DNA of 64,000 nt, from positions 160,001 to 224,000 of IMG/VR virus record IMGVR_UViG_3300032307_000764. The stretch is one strand, 5' to 3'. Each line of letters starts with the position of its first letter. Position 1 is the first letter of the stretch. Positions 3,434 through 44,302 of the stretch are shown here, piece by piece. This stretch comes from a virus. Lineage: Duplodnaviria; Caudoviricetes. A model generated the notes under the pieces. That model made no database searches and was not told the origin of the DNA. It saw nothing but the letters and a program-made list of their open reading frames with translations. The position numbers and the translations under genes are program-made.

Positions 3434-3796
3434 ATGGTAACGAAGGTAAAGAAAGATCAATTGGGGCTTTATGTAATTGCTGGAGGGTACATTACAAGAC
3501 CATTTTGGGGTACCTGTTTTAACGAGGGTGATGAGGTAAAGACCCATCATTTCGGCGGATCGACTCGTGCAGGTGTAACAGTCACCGACAAAAAAGAAAC
3601 CCATAACTTTAAAAGAGATGGTCAATATGAGTACTGGTGCACAACAGGACTCTGTTCAACCAAATACAAGAGGGGCGAATATACTCTGGAAGAAATTGAA
3701 AAGCAAACTGAGTGGTACAGTAAAGATATGATTCACGTTGCGGATCGTTTGACCGAAGCCAATCGCGAATTTTCAAAAACACTTACCCAGTCCTAA
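3434..3796 (+). CDS. Hypothetical early protein
   Basis: 120-aa ORF with its own promoter. Confidence 0.75.
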   Translation: MVTKVKKDQLGLYVIAGGYITRPFWGTCFNEGDEVKTHHFGGSTRAGVTVTDKKETHNFKRDGQYEYWCTTGLCSTKYKRGEYTLEEIEKQTEWYSKDMIHVADRLTEANREFSKTLTQS

Positions 3797-5596: not shown

Positions 5597-6052
5597 ATGC
5601 AAGAAGATTCTAAAATTAGTATGTCCAGAAAAAGACGGATAGTACGATGGAGAAGATTCACCTCGTGGATGTACAGAGGAATGGAGAAGGGATTTTCACG
5701 ACAGGATGAATTATCAGATTCACAGAAAGCTGGAGTCAAGATTTTTGAAAGAGCTTTAACTGTTAAGGATGCTGATTTGTTATTAGCTCCATTGAGCGAT
5801 ACTATCTACATAGAGGTTGATGACATTTTCCTTATTTTGGATGGTAGACAATTAAAGATTATCAATGGAAAATATCAGTACGATATTTACCTTCCAGAAA
5901 AGGTTAATCAGAAGCTTTACTCTTCCTTTAAGAAAGTGTTAGAGAAAAGAAGAAAACAAATGGAGTACAAAATCATCACTAAGACTAACCGTAGTCTAAA
6001 TAACATCCTCGATGATTTAGCAGAAATCAGAGATCGCAAGAAAGAGGAGTAA
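5597..6052 (+). CDS. Hypothetical protein
   Basis: 151-aa ORF with AACCAATTAAAC leader. Confidence 0.75.
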   Translation: MQEDSKISMSRKRRIVRWRRFTSWMYRGMEKGFSRQDELSDSQKAGVKIFERALTVKDADLLLAPLSDTIYIEVDDIFLILDGRQLKIINGKYQYDIYLPEKVNQKLYSSFKKVLEKRRKQMEYKIITKTNRSLNNILDDLAEIRDRKKEE

Positions 6053-6233
6053 GAAACCAAAAACCCAAAGGAGCCTAAGAGAAATCTTAGGCTTTTTTGT
6101 GTGCGGATGTTTTTGTAGCAGCAGCGGATTATTGCCTGAGGAACCCCCGATGAACATCCCGTCAGACGGGATTTACAAATCATTTTTTATTTTGTAGAAA
6201 ATTCTATATATTAGCTAAGTAAACCAATTAGAC

Positions 6234-12720: not shown

Positions 12721-14157
12721 ATGTCAAAAGGATTTATAAAGAAAGCTTGGAACTCGGTCTCAGGATGGGAACGATCTCACTTCGGAGGATTCAAAAGAAT
12801 GGTCTATGACTACCCTTACGTTTCGGTAGATCACAAAGCTAACATCGATACCCCGAATGGTTTAGCTAGAAACTTAGGAAGTGTTTTCAATGCAGAGAAG
12901 CTCATCAAGATTTATTTGATGAAAGCTAAAAAGCACGAAGCTGCTATGGCGACTCTTCTTAGAGAGAAGGTAAGTATTACTGAGTCCGTTGATCCTTTTA
13001 CTAGAAGACCGATTAAGACTCAAAGGATGACACTCGATCACGAAGGTGTTTTTGAATATCTTCTTAACCATGAGCCAGAGTTCGCTCCTCTATTTGAAGA
13101 GTATCGTAAAGAAATCTTTTCTAGCTATATCGAGACCGAATTACCTGAGGGGCAAGAAGGAGAAGGCCAGGGCGAAGGTGAAGGCGATGGAGATGGTGAA
13201 GGCCAAGGTGAAGGCCAAGGTGATGCTAAGCCTAAGAATGGAGATGGCGAAGGTGAAGGCGAAGGGCCGACTACGAAAAGCTACGGCGGATGGGGTGCTG
13301 GTAAAAAAAGCTTACAGGAGGTACTTGATGCGATGAAGGAGTTTAAACCTTTCAGTGCATCAAAAATCGGAGAAGAAGTACCTATTAGATGGCTTAGCAA
13401 ACCTAGATATGGTCGATCTGAAGGCTATACTACTGAGCGGGAATTTACCACAGAAGAAAAAATCAATGGTGATCGTCTTGTAAAAATGCTCGATATTAGC
13501 TTTGAACCGAAGAGTGATATTGTGAGAAGCTTAAGAGCGGGAAGATTGGACACATCTAAGATTGCCGAGGTACCTGCAGGAAACACCGCTATCTACCGTC
13601 AGACCCTAGAGGATCAAGACACCAAACCATTTGCGGTCTGTATCTTAGCCGATATGTCAGGAAGTATGGATGGAGCCAAATTACATGCTCAGTATCACGT
13701 TCTCAATTCTCTCTATTACGGTCTTCACCAAATTATTCCGCCTGATGATCTTTACATCTATGCACATACGGGAGATGACGAAGCGGACATCTACACTTTG
13801 TGTTCTCCACACAACCCAGAGTATGAGAAAAACATCGGAATGTATTATGACATCGACACAGAATGTAATTACGACGGAACTGTAATTGAGGAAGTACACA
13901 AGAAGATTCGGAATATAACAGACAACCCTGTAATTATGATTACTCTATCCGATGGTCAACCTTGTGACAGTGAGGAGGCGATGAAGAAAATTCTCGAGAA
14001 GGCTAGGAGAGATCAATTCGTAACAATGGGAGTTGGTATTAAAGCTCCTTACGTTTCGAAACTTTACACCTACCATTGTGTTGTTGAAGAGTTAGATACA
14101 TTCATATCGGACGTATCACAATTAATCAACAAGGTGGTTCGAACGGAATTCAAATAA
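12721..14157 (+). CDS. vWA-domain protein (CobT-like MoxR partner), copy 1
   Basis: MIDAS DMSGSM and LSDGQP; Gly/Glu-rich linker. Confidence 0.85.
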   Translation: MSKGFIKKAWNSVSGWERSHFGGFKRMVYDYPYVSVDHKANIDTPNGLARNLGSVFNAEKLIKIYLMKAKKHEAAMATLLREKVSITESVDPFTRRPIKTQRMTLDHEGVFEYLLNHEPEFAPLFEEYRKEIFSSYIETELPEGQEGEGQGEGEGDGDGEGQGEGQGDAKPKNGDGEGEGEGPTTKSYGGWGAGKKSLQEVLDAMKEFKPFSASKIGEEVPIRWLSKPRYGRSEGYTTEREFTTEEKINGDRLVKMLDISFEPKSDIVRSLRAGRLDTSKIAEVPAGNTAIYRQTLEDQDTKPFAVCILADMSGSMDGAKLHAQYHVLNSLYYGLHQIIPPDDLYIYAHTGDDEADIYTLCSPHNPEYEKNIGMYYDIDTECNYDGTVIEEVHKKIRNITDNPVIMITLSDGQPCDSEEAMKKILEKARRDQFVTMGVGIKAPYVSKLYTYHCVVEELDTFISDVSQLINKVVRTEFK

Positions 14158-14459
14158 AGTAACCATGTAAAGGAAAGGAGACTTCGGTCTCCTTTTTTTG
14201 TGGGCTAAGGTTTCTGAAATCAGCAGCCACATCCAAACGCGGGGGTTCCTCAGTCAACCTCCAGGTAGCGTCGGATAGATTTTTTTAGAAAAAACTCAGG
14301 AATCATTTTTTATATTAAAGAGAAATTTCTATCTTTGCATAGTTCCAAAAGAGGGACAAACACCAAACAAAAAAAATCTAGAAAAATCTCAAAAATCATT
14401 TTTTATATTAAAGAGAATTTTCTACTTTAGCTAAGTAAACCAATTAAATATCTATAATT

Positions 14460-15431
14460 ATGTCAGAGACAACAAAAAAGACAATGTCAGAAGAAGCAAA
14501 AGCAAAAATCGCAGAAGGTGTTCGTAGAGCAGCTCTAGCAAAGAAAGGGATAATCGCGGAGGCTGCGGAATCCATCGAGGGCAGACTCAAAGTTGATCCT
14601 TCAAAGGTTCAAGAGCTTGACGGAATAGTTACCTTAAACGGTTACTTCAAGCTCGAGAAAGGAACATTCGAAGTTATCAAACATAACATCGAGCATGGGG
14701 TCAATACGATGTTGATCGGGGCAACAGGAACTGGTAAGACCGAGGTTATCTCAAATGTCGCTCAGGCATTCAATTTACCTCTTGTCATCTTCGACATGGG
14801 TACGATGACCGATCCTGTAATGGGACTTGTTGGAACTCACGTAATCACAGTCGAGGACGGGGTTACCAAGTCAGAGTTCAAACGCTCTCGCTTCTCTGAA
14901 ATCATCCAACAACCGGGTATCATCCTATTGGACGAAATCTCCCGAGCTGGAGCGATGGCCAACAACTTGCTCTTCCCTTGTTTGGACTTCCGACGTGAGT
15001 TACCTATGGAATACTCATTCCACGATACAGCTCCTGTCAAAATTCACGAACAATGTGTTTTCTTCTCGACTGCCAACATGGGTAGCCAGTACACAGGAAC
15101 GCACAAACTTGACCGTGCATTACTTGACCGCTTCATGCTTATCGAAATGGATCCGATCAAGAAGCAAGATATCATGGACACTCTATCAGCAGAGTTTCCG
15201 AAATTGCCAAAAACAAAAGTTGAAAAACTCGTATCAACATTCTTGAAAATCAACCAAGAACATGACGAGTTCAAAATCAGCTTCAACCTTTCGCTTCGTC
15301 ACCTTAAGACAATTGCGAAATTGGTCTCAAACGGTTTCGAAATCTATGACGGTTACTTCGTCCTTTGTAAAGGACTTGGCGGCAAGGAAGGTCTACAAGG
15401 AATCAAATCGATCTTGGACTCAGCCAAGTAA
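14460..15431 (+). CDS. MoxR/CobS-like AAA+ ATPase
   Basis: Walker A GATGTGKT, Walker B ILLDE, TANMG, LDRALLDRF. Confidence 0.9.
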   Translation: MSETTKKTMSEEAKAKIAEGVRRAALAKKGIIAEAAESIEGRLKVDPSKVQELDGIVTLNGYFKLEKGTFEVIKHNIEHGVNTMLIGATGTGKTEVISNVAQAFNLPLVIFDMGTMTDPVMGLVGTHVITVEDGVTKSEFKRSRFSEIIQQPGIILLDEISRAGAMANNLLFPCLDFRRELPMEYSFHDTAPVKIHEQCVFFSTANMGSQYTGTHKLDRALLDRFMLIEMDPIKKQDIMDTLSAEFPKLPKTKVEKLVSTFLKINQEHDEFKISFNLSLRHLKTIAKLVSNGFEIYDGYFVLCKGLGGKEGLQGIKSILDSAK

Positions 15432-15556
15432 TTCTCCATCCACAAAAAGAACCCTGGAAATTTCTCCAGGGGTTTTTAGTTTTTTCTTGGAATCATTTTT
15501 TTTATTAAATAGAAATTTCTATATTAGCTAAGTAAACCAATTAAACAAACAAACAA

Positions 15557-17068
15557 ATGAAAAAGACTTTCGGTAACGTATGGAGCTCGGTATCAGGGTG
15601 GGAGAGATCACACTTCGGCGGATTCTCTAGGATGCTATGGGACTACCCATATATCAAAATGGATCTTGATGTTCGTATTGAACCTGGACAAGGTATTAGG
15701 GATTCTCACGGAGCTTACAATGCGGAGAAGCTTGTTAAGATGTATCTATTGAAGGTCAAGGAATTAGGATTAGTAGATCACCTCCGTCAAGAGCGCATCG
15801 AAGAAAAATCTTTCTTTGGTGGTATGAAGAAGTATGACTTACTTCGGTTAGATAATGAAGGTGTTTTCCATAATGTCTTATCAGCAGATAAGGAACTTGC
15901 ACCTCTCTTCGAACACTACCGAGCGGATGTACTAGCTAGCTATATCAAGATGGAAGTTCCTGGAGAGGAGGAAGGAAACAGTAAAGGATCAAAAGGTGAA
16001 GAGGACGAAGAGGGAGAAGGAAAAGGCAATGGTGAAGGAGAGGGAGAAGAGGGAGAAGGTAAAGGCAATGGTGAAGGAGAGGGCGAAGACGAAGGTGAAG
16101 GTGAAGGTCAAGGAAATGGCGACGGTGATGGAGAAGGCGAGGGAGAAGGCGACGGTAAAAGTAACACATCATCCTCTGGAAATTCGGAATCAAATTCTGC
16201 AGGAAATGCGATAAGAGAAGCGGTCAAAGCTATGAGCAAGTACGAGCCATACAAAGGAAAGAACCTTAGTAAGTTCGAAGAGAAAGCTAAGTTCGTTTCT
16301 TTGCCTGCCTCTTTGTCGAAATATAAATACGAATTCACTAGCGAGGAGATCAAGAATTCGGAATTGCTTATCAAGATGTTAGATATCGACTTCGAACCTA
16401 AGGACGATATAGTTAAGAGCTTAAGATTAGGTCGACTTGATACATCTAAGATTGCCGAGGTACCTGCAGGAAATTTGTCCGTGTATCAGCAAGTCTTAGA
16501 GGACCAAGACACTCAGCCATTCTCCGTTTGTATCTTAGCCGATATGTCTGGTAGCATGGGAGGTTATAGAGTTCAAGTACAAAAACAGGTTATGAATTCC
16601 TTATACTTGGCGATGACACAAATCTTACCTGCGGACAAGCTTTATATCTACGGACACTCTGGAGAATACTCACCTGAAATCTTCACCTTCTATAGTCCGT
16701 ATGACACAGACTACGAAAAGAATATTATGTCTTATGAGCGTATCGATCTTTGTCAGAATTACGACGGACCTGTAGTAGAGGAAGTTCACAGAAAGATTAG
16801 AGAGACGAACGAGGACAGAATTATCTTTATCACTTTATCCGACGGCGAACCTTGTGGTAACGGATACGGAAGCCATAACGATATCGTTGACTTAAAAAGA
16901 GTCCTTGAAAGATGCCGAAGAGATAGCTTTGTAACAGTAGGTATCGGTATTCAAAGCTACCATGTTAATAACCTTTACACATACAGTCAAGTCGTTGAGG
17001 ACTTATCTGAAATGTCAAGAGACGTAGCGAACATTATCAACAAAGTAGTTAGAGCCGAATTCAAGTAG
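15557..17068 (+). CDS. vWA-domain protein (CobT-like MoxR partner), copy 2
   Basis: DMSGSM, LSDGEP; paralog of 12721 sharing SVSGWERSHFGGF and the C-terminal INKVVRxEFK. Confidence 0.85.
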   Translation: MKKTFGNVWSSVSGWERSHFGGFSRMLWDYPYIKMDLDVRIEPGQGIRDSHGAYNAEKLVKMYLLKVKELGLVDHLRQERIEEKSFFGGMKKYDLLRLDNEGVFHNVLSADKELAPLFEHYRADVLASYIKMEVPGEEEGNSKGSKGEEDEEGEGKGNGEGEGEEGEGKGNGEGEGEDEGEGEGQGNGDGDGEGEGEGDGKSNTSSSGNSESNSAGNAIREAVKAMSKYEPYKGKNLSKFEEKAKFVSLPASLSKYKYEFTSEEIKNSELLIKMLDIDFEPKDDIVKSLRLGRLDTSKIAEVPAGNLSVYQQVLEDQDTQPFSVCILADMSGSMGGYRVQVQKQVMNSLYLAMTQILPADKLYIYGHSGEYSPEIFTFYSPYDTDYEKNIMSYERIDLCQNYDGPVVEEVHRKIRETNEDRIIFITLSDGEPCGNGYGSHNDIVDLKRVLERCRRDSFVTVGIGIQSYHVNNLYTYSQVVEDLSEMSRDVANIINKVVRAEFK

Positions 17069-30007: not shown

Positions 30008-30202
30008 GAAATAAAAAAAAAGAAAAGACTCTTCGGAGTCTTTTTTTGTGGCCCAAGGGTTTAAGGCAAATAAGGCAAACAAGGAAGTGCTCCTGAGGAA
30101 CCCCCGTACATCTTCCATCAATCATTTTTTTATTTAGAGAAAAATCCATACATTTATACTAGCCAATTAAAAATATTATTACCTTTACCTAAACAAAAAG
30201 AC

Positions 30203-30379
30203 ATGAAAGTAAAAATAGGAGAAAAGATTTACGATTCAGAAAAAGAACCTATTATGGTGATATTATCAGATGCAGACAAAAAAAATATTCACAATATGTT
30301 ACCAACAGCAACAAAATATTGTAGTTTTCCTGATGAAATCCCAACAGAAGATATAAAAGAATTTATGAAGACCACATAA
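30203..30379 (+). CDS. 58-aa hypothetical protein
   Basis: Manual translation MKVKIGEKIYDSEKEPIMVIL... Confidence 0.65.
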   Translation: MKVKIGEKIYDSEKEPIMVILSDADKKNIHNMLPTATKYCSFPDEIPTEDIKEFMKTT

Positions 30380-30388
30380 TCATAATAC

Positions 30389-30488
30389 AGTCAGGTGGTG
30401 TAATTGGTAACACGGGGTTCGAGTCCCCAATCTTCTCGAAGGGAAGATAAAGGCTGGCAAGATACAGGTTCGAGCCCTGTCCTGACTA
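30389..30488 (+). tRNA. Atypical ~100-nt tRNA-like gene (nominal anticodon CGA, Ser-like; no encoded CCA)
   Basis: 7-bp acceptor AGTCAGG/CCTGACT, D-arm GTGT-AATTGGTA-ACAC, T-arm ACAGG-TTCGAGC-CCTGT; GGGG-TTCGAGT-CCCC at the anticodon position plus a 35-nt extra region. Confidence 0.65.
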
Positions 30489-30553
30489 CAAAATCATTTT
30501 TTTAATTGGAAGTAATTCCTTACATTTATACTAACCAATTAAAACAAAACAAA

Positions 30554-41124: not shown

Positions 41125-42747
41125 ATGTCAACATCAAGACCTTTCGCATATAATACTGGTGCTCCTATACCTGGAACAGAACAAGTAGGAGATTTAGCTA
41201 TTGGATTACCCACAAATGGATTTGAATCTACTGGATTGGCATGGTGGAACGGACCTGACGAGGATTTGGGATATGTTATAGCTAAAGTAAATTCTGGTGG
41301 AAATCAACCTACACCTGTACCAGAAGATGCTCTTATATTAAGTCCAACATATAAAGGTGCGGGTATTTCTTTAAGTAATAACAATCAAACTGCTACACAG
41401 GCATTCAGTTATTCGCAATCTGTATTAAGTGATGTTAGTATAGATACCTATAATAAAGTGATGTTTAGTGTTATTTACACCTCAACCAATCCTAGTATTG
41501 GTGTTGGTACCCGTACTATAGGATTAGGTAATACATCAATGAATTATTCTGGTCCCTTTAATGGGTATCCGGGAAATGACGGTAACAGTGTAGGTTTCTC
41601 AGACGATGGAAATTATTACTATAACGGAACTGCTGTGTTAACGGGTTTACCGACGTGGACTAGTGGTGACATTATAGATATTGCTATCGATAATGATAAT
41701 GCTTATTGCTGGATTAGAGTAAATGGTGGTAGTTGGAATGGACAATCTCCATCACCCGCGGGTATAGGAGCGTCTCTTTATTCTGTGGGTGTTATTCGTG
41801 CATGCTTAAATCCTTCTACCTACGGAACAATGAAGATTTTAAACTATCCAGTATACGGAAGACCTGTGGGGTACGACTTTCTTGGAAATGTTACTGCTTC
41901 GGTTGCATTTAGTAGATCTACTCAATTAACTCAAAGTTCTTTTATTTTATTGGCTAATTCTATAGGTAACCAAGTATTTGCTAGCGGAGCTGCTGCTAAG
42001 ACTTGGCTTAATAATAACGGATATTGGACTAGCTGGGAGGACGTATTGCCTATATTCTCGCTAGATGCTGGTGATGTAAATAGTTATCCAGGATCTGGAA
42101 CTACTTGGACAGATACAGTCGGTGGTTTGACTTTTAGTTTAGAGAATGGTCAATCTATAGGTAACAATTCAGGACCAATTTATGACCCAAATAATGGTGG
42201 TAGTATATACTTCGCTACTATGAATGGTGTTGGTGGCAGTGATTATGCTGAGTGTTTGACAAGTTTACCAAGTTTACCAACATTTACCGTATCGGTTTGG
42301 ATAAGATGGATGGGTACGGTAAATAGTTTGCCTGCGATTATTACAGAAATACAATCAGGCAGTGGTCCAATAAATTATAAGATAGGTAAAATAGTTCCAT
42401 CTTCAGCAGACATAGCAGCAGGTTATCGTAGTAATGGATCTTGGAGAAATACCACTACATTACCTAATAGTATTGACTATAATCAAGTTTGGTTTAATGT
42501 ATTAATGACAGTTGATTCTCAACAGAATCTTAAACTATATTTAAACAACAATCTAATACAGTCAGTAACATTTACTGGAGAAATACCATCATCATCTGGT
42601 CAAGGTATAAGATTAATGAAGAACCACGGAAATCTTGAAGAAAACACCGCTGGATATTTAGCCAAGGTAGATATTTATGATAAAGCATTGAATTCTGTTG
42701 AAATATCAGATATATGGGATTTAAACAGAAATAGATTTGGGCTCTAA
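41125..42747 (+). CDS. Virion appendage-like protein: N-terminal anchor, SPRY-like and LamG lectin domains
   Basis: SGDIIDIAIDNDN..WIRVNG (SPRY-like); LDAGDVNSYPGSGTTW...KALNSVEI...RFGL (LamG-like). Confidence 0.75.
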   Translation: MSTSRPFAYNTGAPIPGTEQVGDLAIGLPTNGFESTGLAWWNGPDEDLGYVIAKVNSGGNQPTPVPEDALILSPTYKGAGISLSNNNQTATQAFSYSQSVLSDVSIDTYNKVMFSVIYTSTNPSIGVGTRTIGLGNTSMNYSGPFNGYPGNDGNSVGFSDDGNYYYNGTAVLTGLPTWTSGDIIDIAIDNDNAYCWIRVNGGSWNGQSPSPAGIGASLYSVGVIRACLNPSTYGTMKILNYPVYGRPVGYDFLGNVTASVAFSRSTQLTQSSFILLANSIGNQVFASGAAAKTWLNNNGYWTSWEDVLPIFSLDAGDVNSYPGSGTTWTDTVGGLTFSLENGQSIGNNSGPIYDPNNGGSIYFATMNGVGGSDYAECLTSLPSLPTFTVSVWIRWMGTVNSLPAIITEIQSGSGPINYKIGKIVPSSADIAAGYRSNGSWRNTTTLPNSIDYNQVWFNVLMTVDSQQNLKLYLNNNLIQSVTFTGEIPSSSGQGIRLMKNHGNLEENTAGYLAKVDIYDKALNSVEISDIWDLNRNRFGL

Positions 42748-42845: not shown

Positions 42846-43295
42846 CTAATCTATACATCTTATAGATAAAAGATTTTTTCTGTATTCATCTGATAGTAAT
42901 GATGATCCCTCTATTAAAAATCCTAAATATTCTTTAGTTGGAAAAATTCCTTCAACTATATGGTTTTCTTGTGCAATATAGGTTATACATTCGGTGGGAT
43001 TTCCTTTAACCATTACTTCTATTTTTTCTCTTCTGTAATGATTAGGAGCTCCTTCGAATTTATCTAATTTTTCTAGGTCGCTTTCGGGTATACTAAAAAC
43101 TATACCTTCTACTACCTCCCCTTCAATTTTCTCTATGTTTGCAAAAGCCCAATCACCTTTTGATGCTTTTTTGTTGAATTTTAATTTCCATCCTTTAAGA
43201 ATCCCAACTGATCCTGATAAAGGGCTTAGACCTCTTTGGATAATCCTAGGAACACTCATGTTAGATCCGTATGCGAAGTAGTTTATCATTTTCAT
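42846..43295 (-). CDS. Gamma-glutamylcyclotransferase (GGCT/AIG2-like)
   Basis: YFAYGSNM, VEGIVF, LDKFEG, Y.R. Confidence 0.85.
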   Translation of the reverse strand: MKMINYFAYGSNMSVPRIIQRGLSPLSGSVGILKGWKLKFNKKASKGDWAFANIEKIEGEVVEGIVFSIPESDLEKLDKFEGAPNHYRREKIEVMVKGNPTECITYIAQENHIVEGIFPTKEYLGFLIEGSSLLSDEYRKNLLSIRCID

Positions 43296-44302
43296 AATCC
43301 GAATCTTGATTTTTGTGAATTGAAATTCTGTAGTATCTCTGAATCTGACAAAGCAACATCATATATTAAAGCCTGTGCCATCTTTGCTGCTAAATATTCG
43401 TTGCTATATGTTTTTGCTATCTGTATATTACTATTGGTAACATTGTGTCCAGTAGGTGTATCAGATCCTATGGATACCCCGTTGACAAATAAACTTCTAA
43501 CTGTTCCGTCGAATTTTGCAACAACATTTACCCATGAATTTGGATTTGCCAATGAACTGTTTGCTGTTAGATCATTTCCCCACCAATAGTGTATAATTTG
43601 ATTAGTAGTGCCCGTTCGTAATGCGTTTGATTGATTACCCACTCCAAATGACCCAATACTCATAATTCCTTGTGCTGACCATACAGAATCTAAGCCAACC
43701 CAAGCACTTAGTGTATATGGTGAGTTACCTATGGGTATGTTATTTCCGTTTAATTTACTGAACCATCCATTACCCCCGATCGAAAAGTAAGATGCTCCTC
43801 CTTGTGTCCATGCTATATTTCCAGAATTTTGCATTGTTACATCATTACCGTTCCCACTAAGATCGTACCATATTGTGTCTGTTCCTGGGTAGCTAGATGG
43901 ATCTCCTGCATCTAGATATAATCGTAATCCTGTTGTTATTACATTTGGAGTATAAGAAGTCCAGTATCCATTTGTATCTAACCAGTCTAGTGCATTTTGA
44001 ATGTCTCCTTGTGATATACCACTTATACGATTGACAAGCTTTATAAATGCTGAATCATTCTTGTTGCTTTTTTTAAAAAATACAGTGCCTATATTTCCTA
44101 ATGGTGTTGGCCTGTCTCCAGCAGGATAATCCTTTGCTATAATGTACTTAAGATCCTCGTCTGGTCCCATCCACCATGTTAATCCTCCAGGATTGCTGCT
44201 ATAATCTAGATCGTCATCACCAATACATAATGTTCCTATATTGGTAGTTCCAGCTATGACTGATTGTGTTGGATTATACGCGAATGGTCTAGTAGTTGCC
44301 AT
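43292..44302 (-). CDS. LamG lectin-domain protein, paralog of 41125
   Basis: RPFAYN...WWMGPDEDL; LDAGDPSSYPG...WYDLSGNGN...YDVALSDSEI. Confidence 0.8.
   Translation of the reverse strand: MATTRPFAYNPTQSVIAGTTNIGTLCIGDDDLDYSSNPGGLTWWMGPDEDLKYIIAKDYPAGDRPTPLGNIGTVFFKKSNKNDSAFIKLVNRISGISQGDIQNALDWLDTNGYWTSYTPNVITTGLRLYLDAGDPSSYPGTDTIWYDLSGNGNDVTMQNSGNIAWTQGGASYFSIGGNGWFSKLNGNNIPIGNSPYTLSAWVGLDSVWSAQGIMSIGSFGVGNQSNALRTGTTNQIIHYWWGNDLTANSSLANPNSWVNVVAKFDGTVRSLFVNGVSIGSDTPTGHNVTNSNIQIAKTYSNEYLAAKMAQALIYDVALSDSEILQNFNSQKSRFGL

Follow-up and report, generated by a model that had tools for sequence, protein, structure and literature searches.

Phage T5 encodes two RNAs, RNA1 (144 nt) and RNA2 (125 nt), which are annotated as "tRNA-like stable RNA with unknown functions" (NC_005859). 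In the T5 locus included in our analysis (L189) they occupy positions 3502-3645 and 5960-6084, respectively, both on the minus strand, within a region of tRNA genes and small ORFs. RNA1 has the acceptor stem, the D arm (Leu-type; CCGGAATTGGTAGACGG) and the T arm of a tRNA, with about 75 nt taking the place of the anticodon and variable arms. RNA2 carries an internal T-like hairpin (CTCG-TTCGATT-CGAG), and its T arm (GCAGGTTCGAATCCTGT) is a frame variant that also occurs in the phage family described below. The species 1 and 2 RNAs of phage T4 (rnaC and rnaD) are likewise small stable RNAs of unknown function, annotated beside tRNA genes, and the 3′ end of rnaC has an acceptor-like stem and a CCGGGTTCGAATCCCGG T arm.

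A comparable design is found in the engineered "tRNA scaffold" RNAs, in which a cargo RNA replaces the anticodon arm for stable expression, and processing and stability are provided by the tRNA body. The stem made by the two ends of the Y RNA YrlA binds Ro and is not an acceptor stem. The bacterial and phage Y RNAs (YrlA) and mascRNA are described as non-decoding mimics of the tRNA shape (PMC4201824).

The gene analyzed in this study is a 100-base phage gene located at positions 30389-30488 (plus strand) of a 64,000-nt stretch of viral DNA (referred to as the window), which corresponds to positions 160001-224000 of a 248,191-bp IMG/VR virus record (34% G+C; estimated completeness 85%). The gene keeps the upper half of a leucine tRNA, in which a folded insert replaces the anticodon arm. 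The following features were distinguished:

30389-30395, plus strand: 5′ strand of the acceptor stem (AGTCAGG), in perfect 7-bp pairing with CCTGACT at 30481-30487
30396-30413, plus strand: U8, G9 and the D arm (GTGT-AATTGGTA-ACAC), with A14, A15, G18 and G19
30398-30413, plus strand: the D arm alone
30414-30428, plus strand: internal T-loop-like hairpin (GGGG-TTCGAGT-CCCC) with a 4-bp stem, at the site of the expected anticodon arm
30430-30448, plus strand: hairpin 2 (ATCTTCTC-GAA-GGGAAGAT), with 8 pairs here, 6 of them conserved among relatives
30449-30463, plus strand: 15-nt linker (AAAGGCTGGCAAGAT), whose last U occupies position U48 (the Levitt partner of A15)
30464-30480, plus strand: T arm (ACAGG-TTCGAGC-CCTGT)
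30481-30488, plus strand: 3′ strand of the acceptor stem (CCTGACT) and the discriminator A73 (A30488)

The internal hairpin directly abuts the D stem, nucleotide 26 being absent, and a single A separates it from hairpin 2. A30488 is followed by CAAAA, with C74 at position 30489, and the CCA end is thus not encoded. The element has U8, A14, A15-U48, G18G19, A73 and C74; position -1 is occupied by C, while U is the consensus of the family. A preliminary description of this DNA had reported an RNA of about 100 nt without CCA, with perfect acceptor, D and T arms, and with GGGG-TTCGAGT-CCCC at the anticodon position followed by an 8-bp hairpin and 15 additional nucleotides. All of this can be read directly from the DNA, and the three arms are also recovered by the Rfam tRNA model (RF00005), which, in a search restricted to this region, assigns 43.4 bits (E 3e-8, against a gathering score of 29). 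In the RF00005 alignment, these three arms are matched and 45 nt are passed over at the place of the model's 17-nt anticodon arm. An Rfam scan of the whole window did not report the element; since the local search reaches 43.4 bits, this can be ascribed to a filter effect.

The element shares with T5 RNA1 the acceptor stem, the Leu-type D arm and the T arm, and with RNA2 the internal T-like hairpin, whereas the acceptor sequences and the inserts of the T5 RNAs differ from those of the element. In addition, the T5 molecules are annotated as stable RNAs, whereas the element is known from sequence alone. A covariance model built from its closest relatives (R1; see below) gave 20.3 bits with T5 RNA2, a score no better than those of ordinary tRNAs, and the T5 and T4 RNAs as a group did not exceed that level. 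T4 rnaC and rnaD differ to a greater extent: they are longer (119-139 nt), have no evident Leu-type D arm, gave no hit with RF00005 and share no common sequence with the element. The T5 and T4 RNAs are precedents in design, with no demonstrable orthology. Class II tRNA-Leu (RF00005) shares with the element the acceptor, D and T arms, as well as A14, A15-U48, G18G19 and A73; however, the element has neither an anticodon arm nor a Leu anticodon, and its insert is unrelated to the variable arm. The D arm of most family members is almost identical to that of the phages' own tRNA-Leu genes. Engineered tRNA scaffolds share the design principle with the family, although they are man-made, whereas the phage family is natural and diversified. 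The mascRNA model matched only the 15-nt hairpin of the element (13.6 bits versus a gathering score of 42.5).

IMG/VR was scanned for both ends of the frame separated by 55-85 free bases. The frame (AGTCAGG/CCTGACT, Leu-type D loop, A15-U48, A73, C74 and U-1) was found in at least 120 viral contigs, and the middles of the matched elements were unrelated to one another. The fetched loci yielded 272 distinct elements (66-183 nt), whose inserts can be grouped by sequence into 203 clusters, including 164 singletons. The search patterns account in part for the near-invariance of the acceptor stem, and long related elements with other, covarying acceptor stems are present in the same loci. At least 12 copies are packed into 5 kb of one locus (L110), where they alternate with small ORFs on the same strand. 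Complete genomes of jumbo phages with the frame have 1-4 copies each, and in other phages the elements lie inside large arrays of ordinary tRNA genes. Rfam searches with the inserts of the 12-element array (E up to 1) matched no known family. Judging from the names of the metagenome records, the source samples are mostly freshwater.

Among 185,579 bacterial and archaeal species genomes (one per species), only 7 matches to the frame pattern were detected, all of them on contigs of metagenome-assembled genomes. Since the frame is nearly absent from cellular genomes, it is a phage feature and not a host tRNA. A blastn search of 50,697 deposited phage genomes revealed no copy of the locus and no record with both halves of the frame, and one phage protein used as a probe had no match in four frame-carrying jumbo phages or in the metagenome-assembled genome of locus L127. 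A search of largely open-access literature returned no paper describing a family with a constant frame and variable inserts. The element at 30389-30488 has the constant acceptor stem (which in the family may also occur as wobble variants) and T arm, carries a structured insert, with no anticodon arm, between the D and T arms, and is located in phage DNA (the 248-kb virus record). It is one of a very large family of phage RNAs in which a tRNA frame of Leu type is constant and the inserts are interchangeable.

The frame positions are well conserved among the 272 elements: U8 is present in 98%, A14 in 91%, A15 in 89% and U48 (directly before the T stem) in 83%, with A15 and U48 occurring together in 214 elements; G18G19 are in place in about 81%, A73 in 92% and C74 in 99%. 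U(-1), which is the context preferred by bacterial RNase P, precedes 83% of the elements. The identity set of E. coli LeuRS comprises A73, A15-U48, G18G19 and the D/T tertiary pairs, and recognition requires neither the anticodon arm nor the variable arm (PMC9976931). A tRNA-Leu deprived of both arms was still charged unless A73 or the D/T contacts were broken (Larkin et al. 2002, as cited in PMC9976931). This comparison is suggestive of a family that keeps what LeuRS needs and replaces the parts dispensable to this enzyme, although the identity rules are those of E. coli and Aquifex and may not be those of the phage's host, and the match to the Leu set is not decisive, A14, G18G19 and A73 being common in tRNAs generally. 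The element at 30389-30488 can probably be charged with leucine, and the origin of the family is best read as descent from a class II tRNA-Leu.

The internal T-loop-like hairpin defines a subtype of the family, designated type A (double-T-loop subtype). With the 5′ half and the internal hairpin as anchors, scanning yielded 26 distinct full-length relatives, which were used to build the covariance model R1 and were then realigned to it. All 26 share five helices. Standard pairs make up 98.4% of the pair cells, compared with 87.5% in column shuffles (none of 500 shuffles reached the observed value), while in a control with partner columns slid by 1-3 positions only 37-50% were paired. The covariation score of the 26 relatives is 0.362, versus 0.147 in shuffles. 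Changes on both sides of a pair affect 2 of the 4 pairs in the T-like hairpin (GC to UA or AU), 4 of the 6 in hairpin 2 and 4 of the 5 in the T stem. RNAalifold, which was not given the structure, returned the identical five helices; it supersedes, with the rest of the comparative analysis, the single-sequence MFE fold, which is not a cloverleaf (z-score -2.3, a weak value). The loop of hairpin 2 varies among relatives in both length (4 to 10 nt) and sequence, and is therefore not an anticodon loop. The linker contains a conserved 3′ motif, WWGGNNNGAU. Type A is a conserved RNA structure and not a product of decay.

The additional T-loop is not confined to this set of relatives. Among 195 elements found without any constraint on the insert, 10 contain internal 4-bp hairpins with a TTCRANN loop, compared with 0.4 in shuffles (approximately 25-fold). 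The enrichment of such hairpins in the inserts identifies the extra T-loop as a recurring module. The type A insert plan (T-like hairpin, second hairpin and GG linker) was also observed in L028:7001-7102 (plus strand), which has the acceptor stem TTCTATT/AATAGAA, and in L117:270-367 (minus strand), which has a different D arm and T stem. Since both frames differ from that of type A, the insert type is not bound to one frame sequence. In other insert clusters, compensatory changes were recognized by eye in the alignments, with no formal count.

Upstream of the element, two features are located on the same strand:

30133-30160, plus strand: promoter-like site (TTTAGA-16-TATACT), a consensus match only, which could drive both the 58-aa ORF and the RNA
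30203-30379, plus strand: 58-aa ORF of no known family, ending 9 nt upstream of the element

A 51-aa predicted membrane ORF follows the element, and neither this ORF nor the 58-aa ORF has a match in Pfam or PHROGs. No terminator-like site was found between the 58-aa ORF and the element. Given the promoter-like site, the small same-strand ORFs on both sides and the lack of a terminator-like site between ORF and element, co-transcription of the element within an early cassette, as proposed in the preliminary description, is plausible. Farther upstream, at 30023-30044, there is a perfect 9-bp hairpin (AAAAGACTC-TTCG-GAGTCTTTT) flanked by A and T runs, which resembles a two-way terminator and is placed between a 129-aa ORF and the promoter-like site that precedes the 58-aa ORF.

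The 58-aa ORF recurs with type A RNAs in some related phages, preceding the RNA in L173 and L177 and following it in L155. Comparison of L173:3151-3559 with L155:119-503 revealed that the 58-aa ORF cassette, with identical flanks, has a different pair of frame elements as neighbours in each phage: type A is located 3′ of the ORF in L173 and 5′ of it in L155, with another frame element on the far side. This arrangement indicates that the constant tRNA ends are points of reassortment for inserts and ORF cassettes. Clustering of 3,566 flanking ORFs revealed no conserved protein partner (the best cluster was present in 14 of 150 loci), and the top clusters correspond to terminase, phosphoesterase, VRR-NUC and proteins of unknown function.

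Further RNA genes were identified in the same phage genome:

226126-226209, minus strand: paralogue of the element (locus L002), 36 kb from it, sharing its acceptor stem and, with little change, its T arm
226457-226537, minus strand: third tRNA-like gene (26.6 bits, below the Rfam cut-off)
136909-137400, plus strand: tmRNA (locus L188; RF00023, 73.4 bits versus a 47-bit cut-off)

The middle of the paralogue is different, its D arm is degenerate, and it contains a hairpin of 5 bp (loop AUCCGAA), whose stem is overlapped by a competing CCATCC/GGATGG hairpin. It is labelled Arg(ccg) by ARAGORN, yet CGG accounts for only 1.3% of the Arg codons. The third gene has an expanded D region and a CUCUAAA loop with the nominal anticodon CUA (amber); no trace of recoding was detected in the genome, either for TAG or for stop codons generally. 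Complementarity between the inserts of these three tRNA-like genes and the phage's own genome extends to at most 12 nt, which is the level expected by chance. No canonical tRNA gene was found in the phage record, nor were genes encoding a CCA-adding enzyme, SmpB, L/F-transferase or Pth. The tag read by ARAGORN from the tmRNA is EEAEMLLAA*; a tmRNA identity of the element at 30389-30488 was ruled out, both ARAGORN and RF00023 placing the phage tmRNA at 136909-137400. As regards protein-coding genes, the window contains a MoxR-type AAA ATPase between two CobT/VWA-like proteins (12721-17068), as well as two proteins with concanavalin-like (Laminin_G_3) C-terminal domains (41125-42747, plus strand, and 43292-44302, minus strand). 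In one of the latter, the receptor-binding fold of clostridial neurotoxins was matched as well, though more weakly, and the two are probably receptor-binding or fibre proteins.

Taken together, it is probable that the element is a non-decoding scaffold RNA of the phage tRNA-frame family. According to this explanation, the RNA would be transcribed together with the neighbouring small genes, excised at its 5′ end by the host RNase P and at its 3′ end by RNase Z or exonucleases, and provided with CCA by the host CCA-adding enzyme. The L-shape formed through the D-loop/T-loop elbow, together with probable leucylation, would make the RNA stable and abundant, and the insert would be the working surface displayed by the frame. 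In type A, the internal T-loop hairpin is predicted to form a shortened "anticodon arm" stacked onto the D stem. The GG conserved in the linker may be received by this extra T-loop, as G18G19 are by a normal T-loop, which would create a second elbow-like knob. The RNA might then bind a host or phage factor that reads the tRNA shape and act as a competitor or decoy, a final step that we put forward only tentatively.

One alternative, raised in the preliminary description with anticodon nucleases, PARIS, a synthetase or T-loop enzymes as possible targets, holds that the RNA is a decoy or sponge for a host defence system that targets tRNAs or for a tRNA enzyme: its elbow, acceptor end and extra T arm would sequester a nuclease, a sensor or an enzyme that modifies T-loops. 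It is a special case of the scaffold RNA interpretation, so that the confidence placed in the two overlaps. The RNA is phage-specific, its gene has small accessory genes as neighbours and the turnover of its inserts is rapid, as is the case in counter-defence loci; the approximately 25-fold excess of internal T-loop hairpins over shuffles is also consistent with such a role. However, no test performed here ties any defence system or enzyme to the element, and a non-decoder could not substitute for a depleted tRNA. Anticodon nucleases are poor candidates for the target, since nothing like an anticodon loop is present in the inserts of most family members. We therefore regard a decoy or sponge as conceivable, though rather unlikely.

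The elements could also serve as punctuation, with RNase P and RNase Z cleaving polycistronic early transcripts between small genes and the constant 25-bp ends acting as homology joints through which gene and insert cassettes are shuffled from phage to phage, in which case the insert would matter little. The alternation of the elements with small same-strand ORFs, the exchange of the 58-aa ORF cassette between L173 and L155, and the conserved processing context (U(-1), A73 and C74) all fit this proposal. Nevertheless, the inserts are under structural selection, as indicated by the compensatory changes in both type A hairpins and in other clusters, and the D loop, A15-U48 and A73 are not needed for punctuation, while conserved ends may give rise to shuffling as a by-product. 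We regard the proposal as unlikely.

It is very unlikely that the element is a working, if odd-shaped, class II tRNA that reads UCG through the anticodon CGA, with a 4-bp anticodon stem and an oversized variable region. The loop UUCGAGU does contain U33, a purine at position 37 and the CGA triplet. Furthermore, ARAGORN, which in its default mode makes no call on the element, labels it Ser(cga) in intron mode, with a 14-nt "intron". The latter call was rejected, as its "anticodon stem" has only 3 good base pairs, and its CGA is located in hairpin 2 and not in the loop UUCGAGU. Across the family, ARAGORN accepts 29 of 131 elements as tRNAs, with scattered isotypes and "anticodons" of 2 or 4 bases.

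The anatomy of the element also argues against decoding. Its stem has 4 bp versus the 5 bp of a canonical anticodon arm and is not preceded by nucleotide 26. A canonical variable region measures 4-5 nt or, in class II tRNAs, is a hairpin with only 1-2 nt between it and the T stem; here, hairpin 2 is separated from the T stem by a conserved linker of 13-16 nt (15 nt in the element). The discriminator is A73, here and in 92% of the family, whereas that of bacterial tRNA-Ser is G73 (PMC9976931). UCG is rare in the phage (6% of Ser codons), so there is no demand for a decoder. Moreover, an anticodon arm is entirely lacking in sister elements that share the frame. In all likelihood, the element is a non-decoder, and the view that it is not an ordinary decoding tRNA, expressed in the preliminary description, is well supported by its anatomy and its family membership.

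The suggestion of a degenerate tRNA-Ser or decaying pseudogene, made in the same description, agrees with the failure of standard tRNA finders to detect the gene, but it is extremely improbable in view of A73 in place of G73, the five intact helices with 98% pairing over 26 distinct relatives, the conserved flanks and the many compensatory changes (brought out by the comparison of homologues that the description had itself proposed), which are the opposite of random decay.

The scaffold RNA favoured above can be extended to a more speculative model, to which we assign a low probability: a natural phage "RNA display", in which a leucine-accepting frame, made and stabilized by the host tRNA enzymes, would present interchangeable modules. 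The constant ends would be recombination joints at which modules and micro-genes are traded, in a manner similar to integron cassettes, and the second T-loop/GG "elbow" of type A would jam a host factor that reads elbows (a defence sensor, a nuclease or a processing enzyme).

The element thus belongs to a known kind of molecule, the tRNA-like stable RNAs of phages; the double-T-loop subtype, the match to the LeuRS identity set and the conserved flanks are new. Genes of this family escape standard tRNA finders or receive spurious anticodons, which is of importance for phage annotation, and mislabelled elements also matter for the calling of suppressor tRNAs or recoding. Retention of the LeuRS identity set in the frame makes the proposed charging directly testable, and T5 offers a tractable model. 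The stable RNAs of T4 and T5, annotated for decades, are hereby tied to RNAs of uncultured phages that form a very large and diversified family, which appears to reuse the tRNA body for a non-decoding purpose. If the inserts are binders or decoys, the family would represent a new, RNA-borne class of phage-host interaction and a natural counterpart of the engineered tRNA scaffold.
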